Source: a virus
Lineage: Duplodnaviria > Heunggongvirae > Uroviricota > Caudoviricetes
Reading direction: 5' to 3' (one strand)
Length of the DNA stretch: 37,945 bases
Virus record (IMG/VR): IMGVR_UViG_2526164597_000009
The position numbers and the translations under genes are program-made. Every line of letters begins with the position of its first letter. The stretch's first letter is position 1. Shown here piece after piece: positions 1,143 to 37,011 of the stretch. A model generated the notes under the pieces. That model did not search any database, was not told where the DNA came from, and saw nothing but the letters and a program-made list of their open reading frames with translations.

Positions 1143-1748
1143 TTATCTTTCTACTTCCCAGCGTAGAGATTGCATTAACATAGCATAAATATTGAACAGG
1201 AAAGTTTTTAAAGTTAATACAAGGAACACTGCACTGCTTCCTACGAGTATATATAGTATTTGAACTCCAACAACTTTAGTGCAATGAGAAAACATTAAGG
1301 CTCTGAGTAATTTTGTAGCCAATCCATTTTCTTGCCCGAAAAGAAGGACTAAAAGATAGATAACAGACCAAAATATGAAATATATAAATACTCTCATAAA
1401 TACGCCATAAACATATTTTAAGTAACTTATCCCGTATAATGGATGCTTATACTCCATTAATGAAAGGAAAAGTTCAGGTTTATTTATGGTTGCAAATATT
1501 GTAAATCCAGTAATTAAAAAACCTAATGTTGTTGTAGTGAATCCGAATACTAAAGGTGTCCATTGTCTAATAGATGAAATTAACTCTGGTGATGAAGATA
1601 GACAAAAAGCATTAATAGATAATAATATCACTAATAATAATGTGAAATAAAAGTCAAATGAATTGACCTTTATTTTTTTAGTTAATTTGTAAACATCATG
1701 CAAAGATCGCTCTTTGGTCAGATCTTCTGGGTTGAATGTATATTTCAT
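1143..1748 (-). CDS. Hypothetical inner-membrane protein (about 4 predicted TM helices), last gene of the repressor-proximal cargo cassette
   Basis: 201-aa ORF in low-GC DNA; hydrophobic stretches such as LLLVILLSINAFCL, LVFGFTTTTLGFLITGFTIFATI, VFIYFIFWSVIYLLVLLFG, FLVLTLKTFLFNIYAML; start is 1 nt from upstream ORF stop. Confidence 0.6.
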   Translation of the reverse strand: MKYTFNPEDLTKERSLHDVYKLTKKIKVNSFDFYFTLLLVILLSINAFCLSSSPELISSIRQWTPLVFGFTTTTLGFLITGFTIFATINKPELFLSLMEYKHPLYGISYLKYVYGVFMRVFIYFIFWSVIYLLVLLFGQENGLATKLLRALMFSHCTKVVGVQILYILVGSSAVFLVLTLKTFLFNIYAMLMQSLRWEVER

Positions 1749-1749
1749 A

Positions 1750-2214
1750 CTATAGCCACCTAGAAATTATTGATGTTAACTTGGAAAAAATTTTAGTATA
1801 ATCTTCACGTTCTGGAATAATAATATTTCCTGCATCCTTTAATTCTGTGAATGCAGAATACGCCTCTTGAGCAGCTCTTTCCAAATCAGAACTAAGTTGT
1901 GGCCTTGATGCTTTTAGAGTAAAACTATCATTATTCCCTGATAGCCTTGCTCCGTGTTCATCTTTACCACTTATAATTACTTTAGAGTTGGCCATTCGGG
2001 TTGCACTTGTTGTTTTTTGAATGACGGCCTCAGAATTTAAACCATCTTCATTTTTATTTGTGTATACTAATTGAGCTTTACTACTATTAAGTTCTTCTTT
2101 TTCTTGTTCAATTTTCCTCCAGAAGCCATCAAGAGATATATTTTCACTATTTGTTGGCAATAACTCAATTGATAATCTATTAACAACAGAAAAGAGTTCA
2201 ACAAAATTGCTCAA
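1750..2214 (-). CDS. Hypothetical protein; probably the C-terminal part of a frameshifted about 348-aa gene (with 2294..2797)
   Basis: ORF begins with TTG and no good RBS; its frame is open upstream into the 3' end of the preceding ORF. Confidence 0.4.
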   Translation of the reverse strand: MSNFVELFSVVNRLSIELLPTNSENISLDGFWRKIEQEKEELNSSKAQLVYTNKNEDGLNSEAVIQKTTSATRMANSKVIISGKDEHGARLSGNNDSFTLKASRPQLSSDLERAAQEAYSAFTELKDAGNIIIPEREDYTKIFSKLTSIISRWL

Positions 2215-2293
2215 TGATCTTGGGTCTGTTAAGGGGGTAACCCGTAATTTGGGGGCTCCTAGTTTACGATAAATATCTTTTTTATACAGTCGA

Positions 2294-2797
2294 TCAATGT
2301 ATGATTTTTCTTTCTAATTCTTTTATTTTTTTTACTTCGTAATCCACAAAAGAATTATATCGCTGTGCAAGGCAATACTTGCTAGTATTTTCAAATTCTT
2401 CTAGGGTAGGGGCTCCAGAAACCTCTTTGCAAAGCATTAATCTGTGCTCATTAAGCATAAGAATAAAAATAGAGCTGGGGTGACTTTCTAGCGTCCTGTG
2501 ATCTCGAATTAATTGACCATCTTGAAATATTTGATCTCGTTTAAATATGGTCTTTTTTATAATGCGGCCACACAATGCAATTGTTGGAACTATAGGACCA
2601 ATAAAATCTGAATCTGTAGTATCTAACGTAATAATTTTTGTGTCAGTAAAGAAATATTCTGTATCTTTAAATTTTCTAACGTATTTTTGTGCGAAAAATG
2701 AAGGAAAAACAATGCAATCAAAAGCATCTAAGAGAACTTTGTCCTCTCCAAAATTTAAGGTATAGTTTGCAAATTCAATAGTTTTCGTAAAGCTCAT
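2294..2797 (-). CDS. Hypothetical protein; probably the N-terminal part of a frameshifted cargo gene
   Basis: 167-aa ORF in low-GC DNA starting 2 nt after the repressor stop; ends at an A5/T5 homopolymer (plus 2305..2309) where a 1-nt shift joins it to the next frame. Confidence 0.5.
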   Translation of the reverse strand: MSFTKTIEFANYTLNFGEDKVLLDAFDCIVFPSFFAQKYVRKFKDTEYFFTDTKIITLDTTDSDFIGPIVPTIALCGRIIKKTIFKRDQIFQDGQLIRDHRTLESHPSSIFILMLNEHRLMLCKEVSGAPTLEEFENTSKYCLAQRYNSFVDYEVKKIKELERKIIH

Positions 2798-2799
2798 TG

Positions 2800-3741
2800 T
2801 TAAACCCTTTTTCTAATTATTCCTTTAACTTTATTATTAAATTCCAAATCTTCTTTATCGCATTCAAAGCTATATTTTGTGTTTTCAACGCGGATGCGAT
2901 TGTTTGGAAGTTTAAATATGTCTCTAAAAGTAAATTCTCCGTTAATAGATACTAACCATAGACCATCGCTAAGATACTCCTCTTTGCTAATGATATATGA
3001 ATCATTTGCGGAATTAACTATATAGGGATGTTTTAAATTTTGAGGTAAAATTTCGCTCGAAACGATTAATTCTCTTTGATCAGTAAGTTTGCCGTCACGT
3101 AGATCATAGCAGTCTAATGTAAGCAACCCACTTAGCTTTGTTTGATTGGAATGCCCCTTACCAAAAGATAACCACTCGAGAGACACTCCTGTTTCTAAAC
3201 AGCATTGGATGATCCAGTCTGCCGGAAAAATGTCTCGCATGTATCGTGTAGCTAATGTGCTTTTTGAGATACCAAGGTGATCGGCTAAGGCTTGGCGCGT
3301 TTTGTAACCGTAAGCCTTAACAATTCGCTCTATTGCTGCTTTACCCCCTCGAGTGAAATCCATGTGGTTTTCATTATCGAACTTTATCGTGGGGGTGTGA
3401 ACTTCATTGCAAAATTCATCTGCAGACTGTTTTTCAGCATGCCGTTCTGGCGAAGGAGCTGGCACTCCTTCTTCAGCATCTAAACCAAATGCTAACCATT
3501 CGATTGATGCGCCAGTTTCCATTGAACATATAACAACCCAATCAGCAGGGAAGGTATCGCGTGCATATCTGTTAGCCATTGTACTTTGTGAAATACCAAG
3601 GTGGTTACAGAATGCTTGGCGTGATTTGAAACCATAGGCCATGAGTATTCTCTCAATGACTTTTTGCCCTCCTCGATTCTGCATGACCATGGCTTTCAGA
3701 TGATCTTCAACATGGCGAAATGTGATTTTATTAGTTGACAT
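2800..3741 (-). CDS. cI: Phage 186 CI-type immunity repressor with tandemly duplicated N-terminal HTH domain
   Basis: 313 aa; two about 65 percent identical modules (GGQKVIERILMAYGFKSRQAF...EWLAFG and GGKAAIERIVKAYGYKTRQAL...EWLSFG) then a C-terminal domain (GLWLVSINGEFTFRDIFKLPNNRIRVENTKYSFECD) resembling the 186 CI C-terminus as I recall it. Confidence 0.75.
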   Translation of the reverse strand: MSTNKITFRHVEDHLKAMVMQNRGGQKVIERILMAYGFKSRQAFCNHLGISQSTMANRYARDTFPADWVVICSMETGASIEWLAFGLDAEEGVPAPSPERHAEKQSADEFCNEVHTPTIKFDNENHMDFTRGGKAAIERIVKAYGYKTRQALADHLGISKSTLATRYMRDIFPADWIIQCCLETGVSLEWLSFGKGHSNQTKLSGLLTLDCYDLRDGKLTDQRELIVSSEILPQNLKHPYIVNSANDSYIISKEEYLSDGLWLVSINGEFTFRDIFKLPNNRIRVENTKYSFECDKEDLEFNNKVKGIIRKRV

Positions 3742-3763
3742 ATTCTTTATGCGAACCTATTCT
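3735..3763 (+). promoter_or_regulatory. Candidate lytic promoter pR (-35 TTGACA 3735..3740, 17-bp spacer, -10 TATTCT 3758..3763) in the cI/apl divergent region
   Basis: Consensus -35 with correct spacing to a 4 of 6 -10, directed into apl/cII. Confidence 0.4.
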
Positions 3764-3829
3764 CCGTTTTGTGAAGTTTTCGTCACGATTAATACCGGCT
3801 CACCACAAGCCAATAGGAGATGTTGCATC

Positions 3830-4051
3830 ATGACCCCTAACATTTCAATAACTCTGAATACGCCGCACGTCACAATTGAGCGTTATAGCGAACTTACTGG
3901 TCTTTCTATCGACACAATCAACGATATGCTGGCTGATGGTCGCATCCCTCGTCATCGCCTTCGGAAAGACAAGAAAAGAGAAAAGGTAATGATCAACCTT
4001 GCTGCTCTTACCGTTGATGCACTTACTGATTGCAATGTTGTATTCAACTAG
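3830..4051 (+). CDS. apl: Apl/Cox-like excisionase and transcriptional regulator (small HTH protein)
   Basis: 73-aa ORF with AGGAGA RBS 9 nt upstream of ATG at 3830; position between repressor and cII as in phage 186. Confidence 0.6.
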
Positions 4052-4083
4052 TTCCATTTTGGGATACATCAGGGGTGTCGACT

Positions 4084-4593
4084 ATGTTTGATTACCAAGT
4101 TTCCAAACATCCACATTTTGATGAAGCCTGTCGTGCATTCGCGCTGCGCCACAACCTGGTGCAACTGGCAGAACGTGCTGGCATGAATGTGCAGATTCTG
4201 CGGAACAAGCTGAACCCGGCTCAACCTCATTTATTAACCGCACCAGAAATCTGGCTGCTTACCGATCTGACTGAAGATTCAACGCTGGTAGATGGTTTTC
4301 TGGCTCAGATTCACTGCCTGCCATGCGTACCGATTAATGAGGTGGCAAAAGAGAAACTGCCACATTACGTCATGAGTGCAACCGCAGAGATCGGGCGTGT
4401 TGCTGCAGGTGCGGTATCTGGCGATGTAAAAACCAGTGCAGGTCGTCGTGATGCTATCAGCAGCATTAACTCTGTAACACGACTGATGGCGCTGGCGGCT
4501 GTTTCATTGCAGGCCCGTTTACAGGCTAATCCTGCGATGGCGAGTGCAGTTGATACCGTGACTGGCCTCGGTGCTTCATTCGGTTTGCTGTGA
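4084..4593 (+). CDS. cII: CII-like lysogeny establishment activator (186 CII family)
   Basis: 169 aa from [24 protein letters not shown]...; closely matches 186 CII as recalled ([20 protein letters not shown]...). Confidence 0.8.
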
Positions 4594-4600
4594 GGTGCTT

Positions 4601-4777
4601 ATGCTTACTAAAGAACCATCATTTGCATCGCTGCTGGTAAAACAAAGTCCGGCAATGCACTACTACGGTCACGGCTGGATCATGGGGGAGGATGGTAAAC
4701 GCTGGCATCCGTGCCGTTCACAAGATGAATTGCTGGCAGAACTATCTACGAAAAAAGGGGGAACAAATGGCTATTGA
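4601..4777 (+). CDS. Small early phage protein, hypothetical
   Basis: 58-aa ORF with GAGG RBS; its stop overlaps the next gene start. Confidence 0.45.
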   Translation: MLTKEPSFASLLVKQSPAMHYYGHGWIMGEDGKRWHPCRSQDELLAELSTKKGGTNGY

Positions 4778-5108
4778 AGGCGCTGCGGCGACTGTTCCAT
4801 TAAGCCCCGGTGAACGCCTGAGTGGACTTAATCACATAGCGGAATTAAGGGCGAAAGTTTTTGGCCTGAATATTGAGTCAGAGCTTGAGCGGTTTATTAA
4901 AGATATGCGTGATCCACGGGATATCAATAATGAACAAAATAAACGGGCACTGGCTGCTATATTCTTTATGGCAAAAATTCCGGCTGAACGTCATAGCATC
5001 AGCATTAATGAGCTGACCACTGACGAAAAGCGGGAGCTGATTAAAGCAATGAATCATTTTCGTGCAGTGGTGAGCTTATTTCCCAGACGGCTAACCATGC
5101 CGAATTAA
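4767..5108 (+). CDS. Early phage protein, hypothetical
   Basis: 113 aa from MAIEGAAATVPLSP...; start overlaps upstream stop. Confidence 0.5.
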   Translation: MAIEGAAATVPLSPGERLSGLNHIAELRAKVFGLNIESELERFIKDMRDPRDINNEQNKRALAAIFFMAKIPAERHSISINELTTDEKRELIKAMNHFRAVVSLFPRRLTMPN

Positions 5109-5175
5109 CCAACTAATGAAATTAATGGCGTAAACCCGCCGGGCATCCCTTTATCTAAATTCAGGAGAATTGATT

Positions 5176-5409
5176 ATGCGTAATATTGAAACCCTCACGA
5201 CTAAAACCGGACCGGATGACGCAGGGCTTAATATTTTACTGACAGAGGCTCGTCTGGAAGAACGCCGGGCAAGGGCTGAAGCAATGGCAGCTCGCCTTGA
5301 TCGCCTGGCGTGTCATATCACATCCCGCCAGTTAAACCACGTCGAAGCGGCAGAACTGCTGCGTGTGACTGCTGAAGCAATCCAGAACGAAGCGCAGGAG
5401 ATCCACTGA
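5176..5409 (+). CDS. Early phage protein, hypothetical
   Basis: 77 aa; AGGAGA RBS at 5163..5168. Confidence 0.5.
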   Translation: MRNIETLTTKTGPDDAGLNILLTEARLEERRARAEAMAARLDRLACHITSRQLNHVEAAELLRVTAEAIQNEAQEIH

Positions 5410-5636
5410 TGGCTGATGCAATGGATCTCGTACAGCAGCGCGTTGAAGAAGAACGCCAGCGTCATATCCGTGCTGCCCGTGCCAAAACGCCGGGAGTGTC
5501 CCGCGTGCTTTGCGTTGAGTGTGAAGCGCCAATTCCGCCAGCACGCCGCCGTGCCATTCCGGGTGTGCAACTTTGCATTACCTGTCAGGAAATCGCAGAG
5601 CTGAAAGGCAAACATTACAACGGAGGTGCTGTATGA
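5409..5636 (+). CDS. TraR/DksA-family C4 zinc-finger protein
   Basis: CVEC...(17 aa)...CITC zinc-finger spacing; start overlaps upstream stop (TGATG). Confidence 0.7.
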   Translation: MADAMDLVQQRVEEERQRHIRAARAKTPGVSRVLCVECEAPIPPARRRAIPGVQLCITCQEIAELKGKHYNGGAV

Positions 5637-6487
5637 GCACCATCCTGAAATGGGCGGGAAATAAAACTGCCATAATGTCCGAACTGAAAAAACATCTTCC
5701 TGCTGGCCCGCGACTGGTTGAACCTTTCGCGGGTTCCTGTGCTGTGATGATGGAGACGGATTATCCCAGCTATCTGGTTGCGGATATTAATCCTGATTTA
5801 ATCAACCTCTATAAAAAGGTTGCCGCTGATTGTGAATCGTTTATATCTCGCGCCAGAGTTTTATTTGAGATCGCAAACAGGGAGGTGGCTTATTACAACA
5901 TAAGGCAGGAGTTTAATTACTCAACTGAAATTACTGATTTCATGAGAGCGGTATATTTCCTGTATCTCAATCGTCACGGTTACCGTGGTTTATGTCGCTA
6001 TAACAAGAGCGGGCATTTCAACATTCCCTACGGTAATTATAAAAATCCGTATTTCCCTGAAAAAGAAATTCGCGCATTTGCAGAAAAGGCCCAGCGAGCA
6101 ACGTTTATCTGCGCCAGCTTTGATGAAACGCTGGCGATGTTGAAGGCGGGGGATGTGGTGTATTGCGATCCGCCGTATGACGGTACGTTTTCCGGCTATC
6201 ACACTGATGGTTTCACTGAAGATGACCAGTATCACCTGGCATCCGTTCTTGAACATCGAGCATCTGAAGGACATCCGGTCATTGTTTCTAACAGTGACAC
6301 GTCTTTGACCCGGTCTCTTTATCGTAATTTCACTCACCACTACATCAGGGCGAAACGCAGCATCGGCGTTGCAGCGGGGGAGGGAAAATTTGCAACAGAG
6401 ATGATTGCCACTAAATCTGCTAATTGGTTTAGTGCCGATTTTAGTAGGGGACGTGACTCTACTGTTATTTTCGGGGTGCAAGTGTGA
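5633..6487 (+). CDS. dam: DNA adenine methyltransferase (Dam-like, N6-adenine)
   Basis: ILKWAGNK N-terminus, [11 protein letters not shown]-binding motif, CDPPYDG catalytic motif; ATGA overlap with upstream gene. Confidence 0.88.
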
Positions 6488-7314
6488 AAGAAATGCACCA
6501 CGGAATTCATCATTTCCATGGGACGCCTGTCTGGGGAAGTGCTGGCGACGTTCATCGTATTGCGGTGAGCGGAGCTGGTGCTTTCGTCTCCTATGTACGA
6601 CCAGATCAGATTGCGGCGTCCATTCAGCACGCCCAGGTCGTTGGCATTGATAACGGCGCATTTTCTGCATGGGTGCGTGGGCTAAAAATTAACTGGAATG
6701 ATTTTTATAAATGGCTCCTGAACTATTACCACCATCCTAAGGTCGCTTTTTTTGTCATTCCTGATGTTGTGGACGGAGGTGAACGTGACAATGATGCCCT
6801 GATAAACGAAGTTCCGAAAATGTTCTACGGGAAGGCAACTCCCGTCTGGCATCTGCACGAGTCAATCGATCGGCTTATCGAGCTATGTCGTGAATGGCCT
6901 CGTGTCTGCTTTGGATCGTCTGGTGAATATGCGGCTATTAGAACTGCGCACTGGCATCGTCGTATGCAGGACGCTTTTGAAGCAATTTATTGCCGACACA
7001 ATTTCAAAACAGCTGTTCATGGTTTGCGCATGCTTGACGGTCGTGTGTTGGGAAATTACCCACTGGCGACTGCCGACAGTACAAATCTTGCCTGCAATGT
7101 CCCCAAATTTAATAGCAAATATCCTGAGCTTACGCGGGCTATTCAGGAGGCTGAGTATTCGCGCAATCTGACGGAAAAGGAGCTGAAAGCTGTCATTCTG
7201 AAAAACCGTTGCGCAATTTTAAAAGGTGCAATTGAAGCTGTTCGCCCACCTTCAGTTTCTGACTGGCTGTCGAATGGTTTGCAGCCTTCACAGCTCGAAC
7301 TGGAGATTGCGTAA
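6484..7314 (+). CDS. Hypothetical enzyme translationally coupled to Dam and A; possible DNA-modification function
   Basis: 276-aa ORF with GTG start overlapping dam stop; motifs [35 protein letters not shown] faintly recall the TGT/DpdA TIM-barrel pattern (unverified). Confidence 0.55.
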
Positions 7315-9686
7315 TGAACTACAGCTATTCCTGGAATGCTGAGAAAAAAGCAATCAATCCTTACGTAGAGACAGAAGAGCAATCTTCAGTTTCTGCGCTT
7401 TCAAACCTGATCGCTCTGTACGCTGCCGATAACGAGCAGGAACACCTGCGCCGCGAGGTACTGAGTGATCAGGTCTGGGAGCGTTATTTCTTTAATGAAT
7501 CCCGTGATCCTGTTCAGCGCGAAATGGAGCAGGATAAGCTCATTAGTCGGGCAAAGCTGGCGCATGAGCAGCAGCGTTTTAATCCAGATATGGTCATTCT
7601 GGCGGACGTCAATGCCCAGCCTTCCCATATCAGCAAGCCGCTGATGCAACGTATTGAATACTTCAGCAGCCTTGGCAGGCCAAAGGCTTATTCCCGCTAT
7701 TTGCGTGAGACGATTAAGCCATGTCTGGAACGGCTGGAGCATGTGCGCGACAGTCAGCTATCCACTTCTTTTCGCTTTATGGCAAGCCATGAAGGGCTGG
7801 ACGGCCTGCTGATTCTGCCTGAAATGAGTCAGGATCAGGTGAAACGCCTGTCCACCCTTGTTGCTGCGCATATGAGCATGTGCCTTGATGCAGCTTGTGG
7901 CGATTTGTATGCCACCGATGACGTTAAGCCAGAAGAAATCCGCAAGACATGGGAAAAGGTGGCAGCAGAAACCCTGCGACTGGATGTCATACCGCCTGCG
8001 TTTGAGCAACTCCGCCGGAAAAGAAACCGCCGTAAACCCGTGCCCTATGAACTCATTCCGGGTTCGCTGGCGCGTATGTTGTGCGCCGACTGGTGGTACC
8101 GGAAATTATGGAAGATGCGTTGCGAATGGCGGGAAGAGCAGTTGCGTGCTGTTTGCCTGGTCAGCAAAAAAGCATCTCCCTATGTCAGCTATGAAGCCGT
8201 GATGCATAAACGTGAGCAGCGCCGTAAGTCGCTGGAGTTTTTCCGTTCTCATGAACTGGTGAACGAAGACGGCGACACGCTGGACATGGAGGATGTGGTA
8301 AACGCCAGCAGCAGCAACCCTGCGCATCGCCGCAATGAGATGATGGCCTGTGTTAAAGGTCTGGAGCTTATCGCGGAAATGCGCGGTGACTGCGCCGTTT
8401 TCTACACCATCACCTGTCCGTCACGTTTCCATTCCACGCTAAATAACGGCAGGCCCAACCCAACCTGGACAAATGCGACGGTAAGACAAAGCAGTGATTA
8501 TCTGGTCGGCATGTTTGCTGCATTTCGTAAGGCGATGCACAAAGCCGGATTGCGGTGGTATGGCGTGCGGGTGGCTGAGCCGCATCATGACGGTACAGTT
8601 CACTGGCACCTGTTGTGTTTTATGCGCAAAAAAGACCGCCGCACCATCACTGCATTACTGCGTAAGTTTGCCATCCGTGAAGACCGCGAGGAGCTGGGCA
8701 ATAACACTGGGCCGCGCTTTAAGTCTGAGTTGATTAACCCGCGCAAAGGTACGCCAACAAGCTACATCGCGAAATACATCAGTAAGAACATTGACGGGCG
8801 TGGTCTGGCTGGCGAGATCAGCAAGGAAACGGGGAAATCCCTGCGTGATAATGCTGAATACGTTAATGCCTGGGCGTCTCTGCATCGTGTTCAGCAATTC
8901 CGCTTCTTTGGCATTCCGGGGCGTCAGGCTTACCGTGAACTGCGATTGCTGGCTGGTCAGGCGGCAAGGCAACAGGGGGACAAAAAAGCAGGTGCGCCGG
9001 TACTGGATAACCCGCGCCTTGATGCCATTCTGGCTGCTGCTGATGCTGGTTGTTTTGCCACCTACATCATGAAGCAGGGTGGCGTACTGGTTCCCCGCAA
9101 ATATCACCTCATCAGAACTGCTTATGAAATCAACGAAGAGCCGACCGCCTATGGCGATCACGGCATTCGTATTTATGGCATCTGGTCACCTATTGCAGAG
9201 GGCAAGATCTGCACTCATGCCGTGAAGTGGAAAATGGTTCGTAAGGCCGTTGACGTTCAGGAGGCGGCAGCCGACCAGGGCGCTTGCGCCCCTTGGACTC
9301 GTGGCAATAACTGTCCCCTTGCTGAAAATTTGAACCAACAGGAGAAAGATAAATCAGCTGATGGGGGCACTAGAACGGACATTACCCGCATGGATGACAA
9401 GGAGTTGCACGATTACCTGCACAGTATGAGCAAAAAAGAGCGCTGGGAACTGGCAGCAAGGTTACGCCTGGTTAAACCGAAACGGCGTAAAGACTACAAA
9501 CAGCGAATTACAGACCATCAGCGACTGCAGCTCGTCTATGAGCTGAAGTCCAGAGGATTTGATGGTAGCGAGAAAGAGGTCGATTTACTCCTTCGCGGCG
9601 GCAGTATTCCGTCAGGAGCAGGCCTGCGTATCTTCTATCGGAACCAGCGTTTGCGGGAAGATGATAAGTGGCGGAACCTGTATTAA
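7314..9686 (+). CDS. A: Replication initiation endonuclease (P2 gpA-like rolling-circle HUH endonuclease)
   Basis: 790 aa; HUH motif VHWHLLCF and tyrosine motif YIAKYISK; position after early operon. Confidence 0.9.
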
Positions 9687-9780
9687 TTCCGCGGGCTAAC
9701 AATTCGTGCTCTTAATAATACCAGGCATATCATGCTAATGAATGTAAAAAAACGTTTTACATCAGTAAGATTATTATATA

Positions 9781-9796
9781 CTGTAAATATAAACAG
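9781..9796 (+). promoter_or_regulatory. LexA box (CTGT-N8-ACAG) in the promoter of the tum/dinI-like operon
   Basis: Perfect CTGTAAATATAAACAG about 45 nt upstream of the ATG at 9840, adjacent to AT-rich -10-like sequence. Confidence 0.6.
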
Positions 9797-9839
9797 TGGT
9801 TATGCATACAGTGTTGCTTGTGGTGTCATAGGAGGAAAA

Positions 9840-10028
9840 ATGCAGGACTATTTTTTGGAGTCTTTGAAGCTCCAGCGCATTGATTTTTTTCTTAAGCTTG
9901 TAGCGGCTAGTGAGTGTAGTGATGAAGAGAAGGGGCTGGCTCTGCAGTGGGTTTCTGAATTGACTGATGAACTCATGGCAAAGATCAGAATCCACGAATA
10001 CAACCGCTCAATGGATGTCATCAGTTGA
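9840..10028 (+). CDS. Small SOS-regulated protein, possible Tum-like antirepressor N-terminal module
   Basis: 62 aa; strong AGGAGG RBS; immediately downstream of the LexA box. Confidence 0.4.
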   Translation: MQDYFLESLKLQRIDFFLKLVAASECSDEEKGLALQWVSELTDELMAKIRIHEYNRSMDVIS

Positions 10029-10038
10029 GGTGGCTTTT

Positions 10039-10272
10039 ATGCGCATTGAAATAATGATCGATAAAGAGCAGAAAATTAGCCAGTCTACTCTGGACGCCCT
10101 TGAATCCGAGCTTTACCGCAATCTGCGCCCCCTGTATCCCAAAGCGGTAATTCGTATCCGTAAAGGTAGCTCTAATGGTGTGGAACTGACCGGACTGCAA
10201 CTGGACGAAGAAAGAAAACAAGTGATGAAAATTATGCAGAAGGTGTGGGAAGACGACAGCTGGCTGCATTAA
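10039..10272 (+). CDS. dinI: DinI-family protein
   Basis: 77 aa, MRIEIMIDKEQKISQSTLDALESELYRNL...WEDDSWLH resembles E. coli DinI (MRIEVTIAK...ETWESADDWF); GAGG RBS. Confidence 0.7.
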   Translation: MRIEIMIDKEQKISQSTLDALESELYRNLRPLYPKAVIRIRKGSSNGVELTGLQLDEERKQVMKIMQKVWEDDSWLH

Positions 10273-10538
10273 GAAACGTTGCTGGCGTCTGAACTTGCTT
10301 CTGACGTCAGCAACGTTGAACAACTAGTTTAGTGGGGCATTAGTCATGGGGTAAAATACAGTAACCATTATTTTCACTTCCGCTCAGATTTAACCGAACG
10401 TTAGTTTTGCTACGTATGATGGGCTGCAAATTACCTTTTGGGATTTGTGATAGATACGAAAATCCTATTAGATGCTTGTTAGACCGGAAGCGCCACTTCG
10501 AACGAAAAGTAATGGCCACTTATGCCGGTTTAAAAGCC

Positions 10539-11069
10539 TTAACCTTGTATAGTTATTTGAATATTTTCTTCATTAACACCAAAGTATAGGGCTAGCCCTG
10601 CTTTTGCCTCCTGAAGTGTTAACGGCTTAACTACATTTTCTTCTTCTTCTTCGTACTCATCACCCGCTTGATCGACAATCGAATTAGTCGGGGTTAATTT
10701 TGGAAGAGCTTTAAATTCCAACTTGTCAGCCTCAATGCCAATGTCTTTGAGGTTGCGATAAGATACGGGATTCCGATTGCCATCCCATTGTCCTGGGATG
10801 TCAATTTCAGCATAAGAATTGATGTTTATGATCCAGCGTTTAGGGTTTTCTGGAGCCCTGCTTACTCCCGAGATTCGACCGATCATAAAAGCATGATGAT
10901 GTTTTGCTTCTTGTGATCCCCAGTCCTTTCTCGAATTTTGTACACAAACTAAATATTCGTGCTTAGCTGCATGGCTGGCGTCAAGTCTCCATGCTTGGCT
11001 TCCCCCTGTGTTCAAAATCTCTGTTAAACCACGAGCAGTAAGTACAGTAATACAGTTGGTAGTAGCCAT
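10539..11069 (-). CDS. Hypothetical cargo protein (orphan gene in the cos-proximal variable region)
   Basis: 176-aa ORF on the opposite strand to neighbours, in low-GC DNA; acidic DEYEEEEEN tract; no family recognised. Confidence 0.5.
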   Translation of the reverse strand: MATTNCITVLTARGLTEILNTGGSQAWRLDASHAAKHEYLVCVQNSRKDWGSQEAKHHHAFMIGRISGVSRAPENPKRWIININSYAEIDIPGQWDGNRNPVSYRNLKDIGIEADKLEFKALPKLTPTNSIVDQAGDEYEEEEENVVKPLTLQEAKAGLALYFGVNEENIQITIQG

Positions 11070-11385
11070 TGAATTGTGACCCCGTCTTTTTTAGAGAAAT
11101 ACTATTGATGAATGTAGTTTACGTATTTTTTTATGGAGTAGTCAAGTTAGTATTATGCTCATTATTGGCTGTTTGTTGAGTATTGTGAGTTAGTACTTTG
11201 TGTAGTACCTCTTGATTTATGAGAATTAAATCTAAGTTATGACAAAGGGAGGCAGGGGGAACGCGCAGCGCAAGGTGGACAGGAGGCCATAAGGACTCAC
11301 TTGAAGTAAGAAAAGATCGATAAAGCAACAATGCATGTCTATGCCGCATGAATTCGCATGATCGTTTGAGGATCGTTTTAGCTGA

Positions 11386-11414
11386 GGCCCGCCAGGAATG
11401 GCGGGCTTTTGTTT
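11386..11414 (+). terminator. Rho-independent terminator (stem GCCCGCC/GGCGGGC followed by TTTTGTTT)
   Basis: 7-bp GC stem, 6-nt loop, T-rich tail on the plus strand; about 40 bp upstream of cos. Confidence 0.6.
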
Positions 11415-11455
11415 ATGTCATGCAAGTGCATGAAAACCACTACATAAAGCGGGCT

Positions 11456-11474
11456 GGCGTGGCGGGGATACGAG
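11456..11474. other. Candidate cos site (cohesive-end sequence GGCGTGGCGGGGATACGAG)
   Basis: Resembles the P2/186 19-nt cohesive end (GGCGAGGCGGGGAAAGCAC as recalled); located upstream of Q 3' end in the A-to-Q interval. Confidence 0.45.
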
Positions 11475-11787
11475 CGCGCGCAACGTGCATGATATGGCAA
11501 TATGCATAACCTAGTTGATGAGATGTCTTGCCACTAATAATATTAAAACGATTGAAACATGTGTTCCGTCCGTACCATAATCTTTAAGTGGGTGCAGGGC
11601 TAAATTGTATGATGAAGTATCATATTGCTTCTGAATACTAATGGATAAGTACACGATTGATGTGATGTTATTGCTGACTATTTTTTGTTCTAGTCTTACC
11701 GAAGACCCAACACGGGAGAAGAAATAGAAATTAATTGCGTGCCCTTTAAGTGCACAATTTAGCAACAATTTAAAAATGAGGTGAACA

Positions 11788-12186
11788 GTGAAAGAGTTGG
11801 AACTATATAATCTGAATTTTTATTTTAGCTTGTGTACTTCAGATGAAGTGGAAAGAATAAAAAATGTATCAAACTCGGCGGATTACTTACTCAAAATTAG
11901 GGCTAATGCAACTATAGAACATATCAGAATCCATCGGGTATTACTAGCTGCAATGCGTAGAAGTGGAAATAATTGGTCATTAAGTAGTTATTTTGATGAT
12001 TCTCCTTTTGAGGATTATATTGATGATGTTTCTGAACAGTACAAAGAACATCTAGAAGGGATCTCTGGCGGATTTGTATTTTGCAATGATCCGAATGGTC
12101 GGATATTAAAAACTGATTATGGATGTGTGATTACTATTTCAGAATCACTTAAGTATTTTTTGTATTACATGAATTTAGCTTTTTAA
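11788..12186 (+). CDS. Hypothetical protein; likely N-terminal part of a frameshifted HEXXH-peptidase gene
   Basis: 132-aa ORF with GTG start and AGGTG RBS; ends just after a T6 run (12156..12161) where a -1 shift enters the downstream frame. Confidence 0.45.
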   Translation: MKELELYNLNFYFSLCTSDEVERIKNVSNSADYLLKIRANATIEHIRIHRVLLAAMRRSGNNWSLSSYFDDSPFEDYIDDVSEQYKEHLEGISGGFVFCNDPNGRILKTDYGCVITISESLKYFLYYMNLAF

Positions 12187-12251
12187 CTTTTGATGATTGT
12201 GATGTTCCTGATGATGTAAGAATTGCTGCATTAAGAATTGCAATAAGAACT

Positions 12252-12869
12252 ATGATGCAAAAGGAATCAATGGATTTTGAAATTGATCCACGTGGTATAA
12301 TTCCATCACAAATTGATATGGAAATTAGGTACCATGTAAATGATGTGATGAAGTTTATTGTTGGTCATGAATATTCACATTACGTACTTGGGCATTTGAA
12401 TGATGAATCAACTTTCGAGGCGAGTTTTTTAACCTCTATTGATACGGAAGAAGTTAAACACAAATTTTTCTCCTATGACCAAAAGGATGAACTAGCAGCA
12501 GATATTCATTCTTTACGAATGTTGTCGCTTTCTAAAGAAAAATTGGCTGGGTTAATTCAAAAGGTTTGTATCTACTTCGTGTTCATGGATATATATTCAA
12601 ATGTAAAAGATCAGGTGTCACCTTCACTTAATTTCACAAAGACTCACCCTGAACCAATGGATAGGCTTAGAAATATCATAGAAGAGTTTAAGGAGGAAGT
12701 GGAAATTGATTATAATGAAATGGATAAGTTCATCAGATCAGGTGAGGTCATAAAGGGTTTCTTGCAAGATGATGCTGGGTATAATTTTGATGAAATATAT
12801 GATTTTTATGGATCAATTTATTTAGGTCAGTGGAGGGGAAAGCCGTTAATAGATAGGGTAGACTATTGA
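12252..12869 (+). CDS. HEXXH zinc metallopeptidase-like protein (ImmA/IrrE-like motif); likely C-terminal part of a split about 360-aa gene
   Basis: GHEYSHYVLGH motif near residue 38; the frame is open 33 codons upstream of the ATG without a start codon or RBS. Confidence 0.55.
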   Translation: MMQKESMDFEIDPRGIIPSQIDMEIRYHVNDVMKFIVGHEYSHYVLGHLNDESTFEASFLTSIDTEEVKHKFFSYDQKDELAADIHSLRMLSLSKEKLAGLIQKVCIYFVFMDIYSNVKDQVSPSLNFTKTHPEPMDRLRNIIEEFKEEVEIDYNEMDKFIRSGEVIKGFLQDDAGYNFDEIYDFYGSIYLGQWRGKPLIDRVDY

Positions 12870-27179: not shown

Positions 27180-27234
27180 TGCAGAGATAACGGCTAACTG
27201 GCATCATCCCCGGTTTTTATTCAGGGGATTGATC

Positions 27235-27801
27235 ATGCTTATTGGCTATGTACGCGTGTCAACAAATGACCAGAACACTGATTTGCAACGTAATGCACTG
27301 AACTGCGCGGGATGTGAGCGGATTTTTGAGGACAAAATCAGTGGCACTAAGTCCAACAGACCGGGGCTGAAAAAACTGCTCAGGACACTATCGGCAGGAG
27401 ACACGCTGGTTGTCTGGAAGCTGGACAGGTTGGGGCGCAGTATGCGGCATCTTGTTACGTTGATAGAAGAGTTGCGCCAGCGAGGTGTGAATTTCCGAAG
27501 CCTGACTGACAGTATTGATACCAGTACCCCAATGGGCCGTTTCTTTTTTCATGTCATGGGTGCCCTGGCTGAAATGGAACGCGAACTGATAGTTGAACGT
27601 ACCAGGGCGGGGCTTGCTGCAGCTCGCGCCAAAGGCAGAGTAGGTGGACGCCGTCCTAAGTTGACTACCGAACAGTGGGCACAGATTGGACGCTTACTCG
27701 AGGCCGGAGAATCAAGACAGCGTATTGCACTGATTTTTGATGTGGGTGTTTCCACAATTTATAGAAAATTTCCGGCAAATAAGAGTAATGAATCCCCCTG
27801 A
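27235..27801 (+). CDS. Serine recombinase DNA invertase (Pin/Gin/Cin/Hin family)
   Basis: MLIGYVRVSTNDQNTDLQ...VVWKLDRLGRSM...SPMGRFFFHVMGALAEMERELI closely matches E. coli e14 Pin as recalled; catalytic Ser in the YVRVST motif. Confidence 0.9.
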   Translation: MLIGYVRVSTNDQNTDLQRNALNCAGCERIFEDKISGTKSNRPGLKKLLRTLSAGDTLVVWKLDRLGRSMRHLVTLIEELRQRGVNFRSLTDSIDTSTPMGRFFFHVMGALAEMERELIVERTRAGLAAARAKGRVGGRRPKLTTEQWAQIGRLLEAGESRQRIALIFDVGVSTIYRKFPANKSNESP

Positions 27802-35325: not shown

Positions 35326-37011
35326 TTATCCTAATCCTGGCCATACCATGACGATGATTGTCCCTGCCAGCGTCAGCAGGACGTTGGCGATTGCGTAGGT
35401 GCCCGCATAGCCCAGCGCAGGGATGTTACTGCGAGCTGTATCACTGATGATCTCCATTGCCGGCGCGCAGGTGCGTGCGCCCATCATTGCGCCGAACAAC
35501 AGTGCGCGGTTCATTCGCAATACATAAGCACCGAACAAGAAACAGATAACCACGGGCACAAGACTGACAATTAATCCGGCAATCAACATCTGACCGCCAA
35601 TCGCGCCCAGGCCGTTATTAATACCGCTACCGGCGCTCAGACCAACGCCTGCCATAAACACCATCAAGCCGAACTCTTTCACCATGCTTAATGCACCTTG
35701 CGGAATGTAACCGAAGGTCGGGTGGTTAGCACGCATAAAGCCCAGCATAATTCCGGCGAATAACAACCCGGCAGCGTTCCCCATGCCGAAACTGAATGTG
35801 CTGAACTGGAAGGTGATCATCCCGATCATCAGCCCAATAACAAAGAAGGCGCAGAATGCCAGCAGGTCAGTGACCTGGCTGTGAATCGAGATAAAGCCGA
35901 TGCGATCGGCGATGGTTTTTACGCGGCGGGCATCGCCGCTGACTTGTAAAACGTCACCTTTGTTAAGCACGACGTTGTCATCTATCGGCATCTCAATCTG
36001 GCTACGAATGACGCGGTTAAGGAAGCAACCGTGATCGGTCAACTTCAGTTGTGCGAGACGTTTACCTACAGCGTTATGGTTTTTAACGACCACTTCTTCA
36101 GTGACGATACGCATGTCGAGAAGGTCACGATCGAAAACTTCTTTACCGTTACGGAAGCTGGGATCGAGTCGGGCATGGGCGTCGGGATAGCCTACCAACG
36201 CTATTTCATCGCCCATTTGTAGCACGGCATCACCGTCTGGATTTGCCAGAATCCCGTTACGTCGAATACGTTCAATGTAGCAGCCGGTTTGTCGATAAAT
36301 ACCCAGTTCACGCAGATTTTTGCCGTCGGTCCAGGCCACCAGCTCCGGGCCGACGCGATAGGCGCGGATCACCGGTAAATAAACCTTACGGTTGGCATCA
36401 GTGTCCAGGCCACGTTCGCGGGCGATTTGCTGGGCGCTGGTCTGTAAGTCCTGATGCTGCAATTTCGGCAAGTAACGCGCACCAACAATCAAACTCACCA
36501 GACCGATTAAATAGGTTAAGGCATACCCGAGGCTCAGATTATCCAGTGCCAGTGAGAGCTGCCTGCTTTCCATGCCGAAATGACGCAGTGTATCGCCAGC
36601 ACCGACCAGAACCGGTGTCGACGTCATAGAGCCTGCTAACATACCGGCCGTCAGGCCAATATCCCAGCCAAACAGCTTACCTAACCCTAAGGCGATCACC
36701 AGCGCACTGCCAACCATCACCAGTGCTAACATTAGGTAATTTTTCCCATCGCGAAAAAAAATGGAAAAAAAGTTCGGTCCGGCTTCGACCCCGACGCAGA
36801 AAATAAACAGCATAAAGCCAAGATTAAGCGCATCGGTGTTAATGCTGAAATGTTGTTGGCCTAATAACAGCGATACGACTAAAACGCCAATGGAATTACC
36901 CAGTTGGATCGAACCAAGTCGTAACTTTCCGAGACATAGCCCAAGCGCGAGGACCACAAATAATAACAGAATGTAATTCCCATTTAACAATTCGGCGACG
37001 TTTATATTCAC
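35326..37011 (-). CDS. ybjL: Putative transport protein YbjL (AAE-family transporter with central TrkA-C-like domains)
   Basis: 561-aa ORF recognised as E. coli YbjL by length and flanking gene order (ybjM, grxA); multiple TM segments. Confidence 0.88.

Follow-up and report, generated by a model that had tools for sequence, protein, structure and literature searches.

The 276-aa protein encoded between a Dam methylase gene and replication gene A of the prophage analysed here is a DpdA-type enzyme of the tRNA-guanine transglycosylase (TGT) superfamily. It is probably a singleton phage DpdA, which would swap guanine in DNA for a 7-deazaguanine made by the host, with the neighbouring Dam methylase acting independently. 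The term singleton refers to the third group of Hutinet 2019, in which DpdA occurs without preQ0/G+ genes. The assignment is not new, as the counterpart in Salmonella phage SEN1 has already been listed as DpdA. The main value of the analysis lies in the correction of an annotation, the biology being already catalogued.

The window, that is, the whole stretch of 37,945 nucleotides that was analysed, carries a 186/P2-like prophage. According to the list of open reading frames and the Pfam and PHROGs matches, it includes an integrase, a CI repressor, a Cox/Apl-like gene, CII, DUF5347, DUF2732, a TraR-like gene, gpA, a DinI-like gene, portal, terminase and tail genes. The features of the early region that are relevant to the 276-aa protein are the following:

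3735 to 3763, plus strand: candidate pR-like early lytic promoter (TTGACA-17-TATTCT)
5409 to 5636, plus strand: TraR/DksA-type zinc-finger protein, 75 aa (PF01258 4e-11, phrog_54 2e-30)
5633 to 6487, plus strand: Dam-family (D12 class) N6-adenine DNA methyltransferase, 284 aa (PF02086 4e-76, TIGR00571 8e-95)
6409 to 7388, no strand: mosaic cassette with dpdA, 980 bp, with breakpoints inside both flanking genes (dam at its 3' end, gene A at its 5' end)
6484 to 7314, plus strand: probable DpdA-like protein of the singleton phage group (DNA guanine transglycosylase, TGT superfamily), 276 aa if started at GTG 6484 and 273 aa if started at ATG 6493
7314 to 9686, plus strand: replication initiation endonuclease gpA, 790 aa (PF05840 9e-128, phrog_91 1e-286)

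The candidate promoter is the sole strong sigma-70-like match on the plus strand from 3500 to 10500 and lies just 5' of the Cox/Apl-like gene (phrog_575). A scan of the plus strand found no convincing promoter or terminator between this element and gpA. Read from the layout of phage 186, the early lytic transcript from the pR-like promoter most likely carries dam, dpdA and gene A together.

Within this operon, the GTG start of the 276-aa ORF overlaps the TGA stop of dam (GTGA, 6484-6487), and the GGGGTG located 5 nt 5' of the GTG is a plausible Shine-Dalgarno sequence. In the NCBI PGAP annotation, the same gene starts at the in-frame ATG 6493, encodes 273 aa and follows dam after a gap of 5 nt. 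The overlap with dam described in the sequence-only reading of this DNA is therefore present with the first start and lost with the second, and comparison does not settle the choice because the dpdA homologues are conserved only from residue 10 (HxHGTP) on. The overlap with the start of gene A, which was described as well, is there: the last base of the TAA stop (7312-7314) is also the first base of the gpA ATG at 7314. Whichever start is used, dam, the 276-aa ORF and gpA are tightly packed. Close packing is usual along the whole early operon, where the stop of the TraR/DksA-type gene also overlaps the start of dam.

Most searches with the 276-aa protein are uninformative. No relevant match was found in Pfam, NCBIfam or PADLOC, and searches of the PDB sequences with phmmer and hmmsearch, using the single sequence and two profiles, returned only chance matches (phage coat protein, designed protein, GCN4 coiled coils). 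The RefSeq name is "hypothetical protein", and the best 120 of 4,297 homologues have no Pfam domain and no informative name, most of them being labelled "hypothetical protein" or left unnamed. The statement that the protein has no obvious assignment is accurate for Pfam, NCBIfam, the PDB sequence searches and RefSeq, but not for PHROGs. There it matches phrog_887 ("queuine tRNA-ribosyltransferase") at 2e-96, and the DpdA of Escherichia phage CAjan matches the same family at 8e-96.

To describe the family, a profile of 64 homologues with a mean identity of 29% was used, none of which (0 of 64) matches the Pfam TGT domain PF01702 at E <= 0.1. This silence of Pfam is to be expected, because the Pfam TGT model likewise misses CAjan DpdA. 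Aligned by hhalign with the single sequence of E. coli Tgt, the family profile reaches a probability of only 1.4%; a single-sequence template of this kind is too weak, and the CAjan DpdA was therefore used as a bridge. Against CAjan DpdA, the 64-sequence profile gives a probability of 98.8% (E 7.5e-17, 157 columns), with the motif pairs (family/CAjan) lDNGAFS/LDSGAFS, PVWHlhE/PCFHFGE, klHGLRM/KLHAFGI and SaDST/SCDSS. In the AlphaFold2 model of the protein (pLDDT 87.7, pTM 0.85), eight strands alternate with helices to give a TGT-like (beta/alpha)8 barrel fold, and a helical extension is added at the C terminus. The fold of the TGT/DpdA type, which had been guessed from motifs, is thus confirmed by the PHROGs match, the alignment to CAjan DpdA, the modelled barrel and a set of invariant residues.

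The motifs that led to this guess are all present, the first at residues 54-63, FFVIPDVV at 89-96 and VCFGSSGEY at 141-149, and D56 and D94, of the three invariant aspartates, lie within them. Across the 64 homologues, at 29% mean identity, D56, D94, H123, H179, D198 and S199 are invariant. In the AlphaFold2 model, D56, D94, D198, H123 and H179 are located at the C-terminal ends of barrel strands 3, 4, 8, 5 and 7, respectively, and the C-terminal ends of barrel strands are the usual active-site face. In the hhalign alignment, D56, H179 and D198 coincide with the CAjan DpdA motifs LDSGAFS, KLHAF and SCDSS, and the motif order of E. coli Tgt, with D89 (DSGGFQ), D143 (DEC) and D264 (FDC), matches D56, D94 and D198. 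In bacterial DpdA and TGTs, the three invariant aspartates act as general acid/base, in base recognition and as nucleophile, and mutation of the first or the last abolishes guanine exchange (PMC10164549). By this correspondence, D198 would be the nucleophile and D56 the general acid/base, and D56, D94 and D198 would be the expected counterparts of Asp95, Asp130 and Asp256 in S. Montevideo DpdA (7UI4).

Membership of the superfamily would also be compatible with a transglycosylase that acts on a target other than DNA, either a protein N-terminus, as in the deazaguanylation by Cap10 of type IV CBASS, or a host or phage tRNA. Such a target is unlikely. In comparison with the TGTs of E. coli and Z. 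mobilis (3UNT), the window protein has no PF01702 match, is about 100 residues shorter and lacks the CxCxxC...H zinc site (residue 302 in E. coli Tgt), its cysteines being isolated only (C135, C142, C170, C204 and C243). The substrates of TGT and Cap10 (9NTN) are tRNA and a protein N-terminus, respectively, and their gene contexts are unrelated to the one described here. A Cap10 operon combines a QueC-like Cap9 with a CD-NTase, whereas the window contains no QueC-like gene, the protein has no match in PADLOC, and the context is a phage early operon.

If the protein is a singleton phage DpdA, as is preferred here, the base has to be supplied from elsewhere. No preQ0 genes were found in the 37.9-kb window, where tblastn with FolE, QueD, QueE, QueC and the preQ0 transporter YhhQ of CAjan gave short chance matches (best E 0.009), or in the RefSeq annotation of the near-identical prophage region. 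The gene is thus a singleton in the sense defined above, without FolE, QueD, QueE, QueC or amidotransferase genes. E. coli makes preQ0 via FolE, QueD, QueE and QueC, and ADG is an intermediate of QueC. As the prophage itself lacks genes for preQ0 synthesis, it has to draw the base from this queuosine pathway of the host.

The proposed course of events is as follows. Upon induction or infection, the early operon would express Dam, DpdA and gpA together. [quoted passage not shown] Free preQ0, or its amide ADG, would then resolve this intermediate, completing a double displacement. The expected product would be sparse and probably motif-specific dPreQ0 or dADG in the phage DNA, as in the relatives that have been measured, and Dam would add m6A independently.

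The upstream gene had been described as Dam-like with a DPPY motif, and this description is correct. Both profiles score above their cutoffs (256 bits against 22 for PF02086; 317.5 bits against 114.85 for TIGR00571) and, together with the DPPY at residues 179-182 (window 6167-6178), they place the protein in the Dam family, D12 class. PADLOC matches it as an "orphan MTase" (3e-110), and its score of 289.6 bits falls short of the 441 bits required by NF008152, the E. coli Dam equivalog. Its specificity is presumed to be GATC, a site that, when examined for traces of selection related to Dam, proved neither avoided nor enriched in the window (134 observed vs 127 +/- 10.5 expected). Marking of the phage DNA in two ways, by m6A and a 7-deazaguanine, had been suggested as a means of evading restriction. 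The double marking itself is plausible, as Pantoea phage vB_PagS_MED16 has both enzymes and both marks, but not as the work of a two-component system. Evasion of restriction does not find support: modification in the two measured relatives, 7-11 and MED16, is sparse (0.02-0.13% of G), and MED16 has no detectable protection against the enzymes tested.

A different role has also been considered. The singleton DpdAs of temperate enterobacterial phages might not be anti-restriction enzymes at all but might insert the QueC intermediate ADG at a few sites, possibly GA-containing ones that overlap GATC, to give a rare composite mark with another use. Such a mark could serve to discriminate between phage and host DNA, to time replication or packaging beside gpA, or to counter or trigger modification-sensing defence. 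The recurrent place of dpdA directly 5' of gene A, and occasionally beside dam, would then be functional rather than incidental. This is a long shot.

According to another proposal, translational coupling would tie Dam and the 276-aa protein into an obligate two-component system, in which one needs the other or both write one composite site. Several observations agree with it: the two ORFs abut or overlap, the dam-dpdA arrangement recurs in an Atlantibacter prophage (L008), a Dam-like gene adjoins a dpdA-like gene in Rosenbergiella in a different order, MED16 encodes both enzymes (PMC8306585), and known DpdAs target GA-containing motifs, which could overlap GATC. However, close packing is normal in this operon, and the distribution of the two genes makes an obligate system very unlikely. 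When a 2-kb query was compared with 5,426 complete E. coli genomes, 1,242 matched part of it, mostly the Dam part, and most of these matches end at window 6408, inside the 3' end of dam. The whole 2-kb region is covered in only 102 genomes (102-105 with dpdA). With the dpdA gene alone as the query, matches were obtained in 107 complete genomes, 103 of them with at least 95% identity.

The boundaries of the inserted segment point in the same direction. In L012, a sibling E. coli prophage that carries Dam only, gene A directly follows dam. This prophage is 97% identical to the window over 5000-6408 and 7389-10000 and has 195 bp in place of the 980 bp at 6409-7388; therefore, dpdA arrived on a mosaic cassette of its own. 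With it, ~26 codons at the end of dam and ~25 codons at the beginning of gene A were exchanged as well. Since its breakpoints lie inside both genes, both neighbours of dpdA are chimeric.

Further loci show how loosely the two genes are associated. The comparison covered eight 186-like loci with dpdA upstream of gpA: one in phage SEN1, one on an E. coli chromosome, and one in each of six genomes out of nine others that a scan of GTDB species representatives had supplied. Among these, dam precedes dpdA in only two, those of E. coli and Atlantibacter; Dam is absent from the remaining six, SEN1 included. Phages 7-11 and BTP1 have no adjacent methylase at dpdA. In Rosenbergiella metrosideri (L010, 6001-7686), a dpdA-like gene with 62% identity has, ~100 bp downstream, a Dam-like gene sharing 35% identity with Dam of the window, and no CII, TraR-like or gpA homologues occur in the vicinity; here the two gene types have come together a second time, independently. 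Because of the distribution across genomes and the cassette boundaries, the two genes are judged to be separable. The two-component interpretation given in the sequence-only reading was consequently abandoned, and dam and dpdA are best read, from sequence comparison, as two independent accessory modules in one operon. One Logan contig (36,570 bp) encodes a 421-aa protein, 99% identical, in which Dam residues 1-192 are joined in frame to DpdA-like residues 48-276. This fusion was seen once, is most simply an in-frame deletion and was rejected as a sign of functional coupling.

Finally, it is highly improbable that the 276-aa protein is a replication accessory factor of gpA or a decayed enzyme remnant without base exchange: although the gene lies directly 5' of gene A, shares a base with its start codon and keeps this position in 186-like prophages of eight genera, and although mycobacteriophage Orion has a singleton DpdA yet unmodified DNA, the sibling prophages replicate with the slot empty (which led to rejection of the accessory role), the state of Orion DNA is explained by a host that makes no preQ0 (PMC6884629), and a TIM barrel with invariant Asp/His/Asp at ~29% identity in members from unrelated phages (P22-like, Vibrio, Rhizobium, cyanophage) argues for selection on the active site, not on an interaction with gpA.

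Several other features of the prophage were recorded. The CI repressor ORF (2800-3741, minus strand, 313 aa) has two separate PF07022 helix-turn-helix matches and a CI C-terminal domain. In the near-identical E. coli prophage L001, the annotated CI is shorter (210 aa, 633 bp). The greater length could come from duplication of the N-terminal domain or from an ORF called too long. Three ORFs of 201, 154 and 167 aa that separate the integrase from cI (1143-2797, minus strand) have no functional assignment in Pfam, PHROGs or PADLOC, the middle one having only a weak DUF4747/phrog_10040 match; the segment could be a slot for accessory or defence cargo. The region from the DinI-like gene to portal (10539-12869) is a variable cargo region. 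It contains a 176-aa phrog_37247 protein of unknown function on the minus strand, a 132-aa ORF without a match and a 205-aa ORF in which an M48-peptidase motif is weakly recognizable, and L001 has a different 1.4-kb hypothetical gene in this slot. A DNA invertase (27229-27801, plus strand, phrog_125 1e-101) directly follows the tail-fibre genes, which, by analogy with Gin of phage Mu and Cin of phage P1, suggests an invertible host-range segment. The Asp-Al_Ex/TrkA_C transporter gene at 35326-37011 (minus strand) is most likely host chromosome, in which case the prophage ends before ~35.3 kb.

The corrected annotation, from "hypothetical protein" to DpdA-type DNA base-exchange enzyme, concerns ~2% of complete E. 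coli genomes and many prophages of Enterobacteriaceae. For example, the widely used laboratory strain E. coli ATCC 8739 (NZ_CP033020.1, 3047740-3048561) carries a dpdA-like gene that is 99.0% identical and lies 5' of a replication endonuclease. E. coli AR_0017 and APEC O78 likewise have the gene with an identity of at least 99%. As its host has full queuosine-pathway genetics, the E. coli prophage may offer a tractable system for the questions posed by singleton DpdAs, namely which base is inserted, why it is dADG rather than dPreQ0, which motif is recognized, and what benefit the phage would draw from so sparse a mark.

Among the known systems, bacterial DpdA belongs to the Dpd restriction-modification system. 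It needs the ParB-like ATPase DpdB and works within the dpdA-K island, in which DpdC makes ADG. The enzyme of S. Montevideo (PDB 7UI4) has only 12% identity to the window protein, and bacterial DpdA is larger (413-436 aa). The PADLOC model of DpdA is unmatched, and neither DpdB nor DpdC is found nearby, the neighbours being the TraR-like gene, dam and gpA.

CAjan DpdA, of the DpdA1 type, belongs to the same PHROG 887 and shares the catalytic motifs by profile comparison, although the pairwise identity is only ~20%. Unlike the window, CAjan encodes its own FolE, QueD, QueE, QueC and preQ0 transporter; ~32% of its G is replaced by dPreQ0, and deletion of dpdA abolishes dPreQ0 (PMC6884629). The DpdA of Salmonella phage 7-11 (YP_004782407) is closer, with 34% identity over 96% of the query. 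This phage serves as type example for the 76 phages classed as "DpdA only", and its DNA contains dADG at ~0.02% of G, a value obtained with no knock-out (PMC6884629). In contrast to the window, 7-11 is a podovirus of the lytic kind, the genes around its dpdA are unrelated, and no methylase lies beside it. A shorter DpdA-like form (~200-250 aa) occurs in P22-like, SfI-like, Rhizobium, Caulobacter, cyanophage and many Vibrio phages. Its alignment covers residues 10-206 only, so that the C-terminal helices that extend the SEN1/MED16/7-11 type are missing; the BTP1 copy (L016, 2995-3750) is located in the ea region, with the recombination genes on one side and xis/int on the other.

The DpdA of MED16 (gp38) is of the long form with the C-terminal helical extension and has 55% identity over 96% of the query. 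Like the window, MED16 has a singleton DpdA without preQ0 genes and also a Dam-type methylase (PMC8306585). However, it is a lytic siphovirus, and its dam (ORF32) and dpdA (ORF38) are apart. In its DNA, LC-MS/MS detected dADG at ~0.13% of G and m6dA at ~0.27% of A, no dpdA knock-out having been made, and no protection by dADG was detectable with the restriction enzymes tested (PMC8306585). HHpred relates its DpdA to T. maritima TGT (99.18%), and the closest viral homologues named are SEN1 and SW9 (PMC8306585).

The best phage match is gp38 of SEN1 (YP_009217891 / ALF02275), with 75.7% identity over 267 residues, both proteins being 276 aa long. Hutinet et al. 2019 include YP_009217891 among the DpdA-only phages of their Supplementary Data 1. 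SEN1 is a P2/186-like Eganvirus in which the gene occupies the same slot immediately 5' of the replication endonuclease, with CII, DUF2732 and TraR-like genes upstream and no preQ0 genes. It differs from the window in having a 92-aa hypothetical gene in place of dam and a gpA that is only ~34% identical. By sequence and position, the gene described here is the E. coli counterpart of a published singleton DpdA of P2-like phages.
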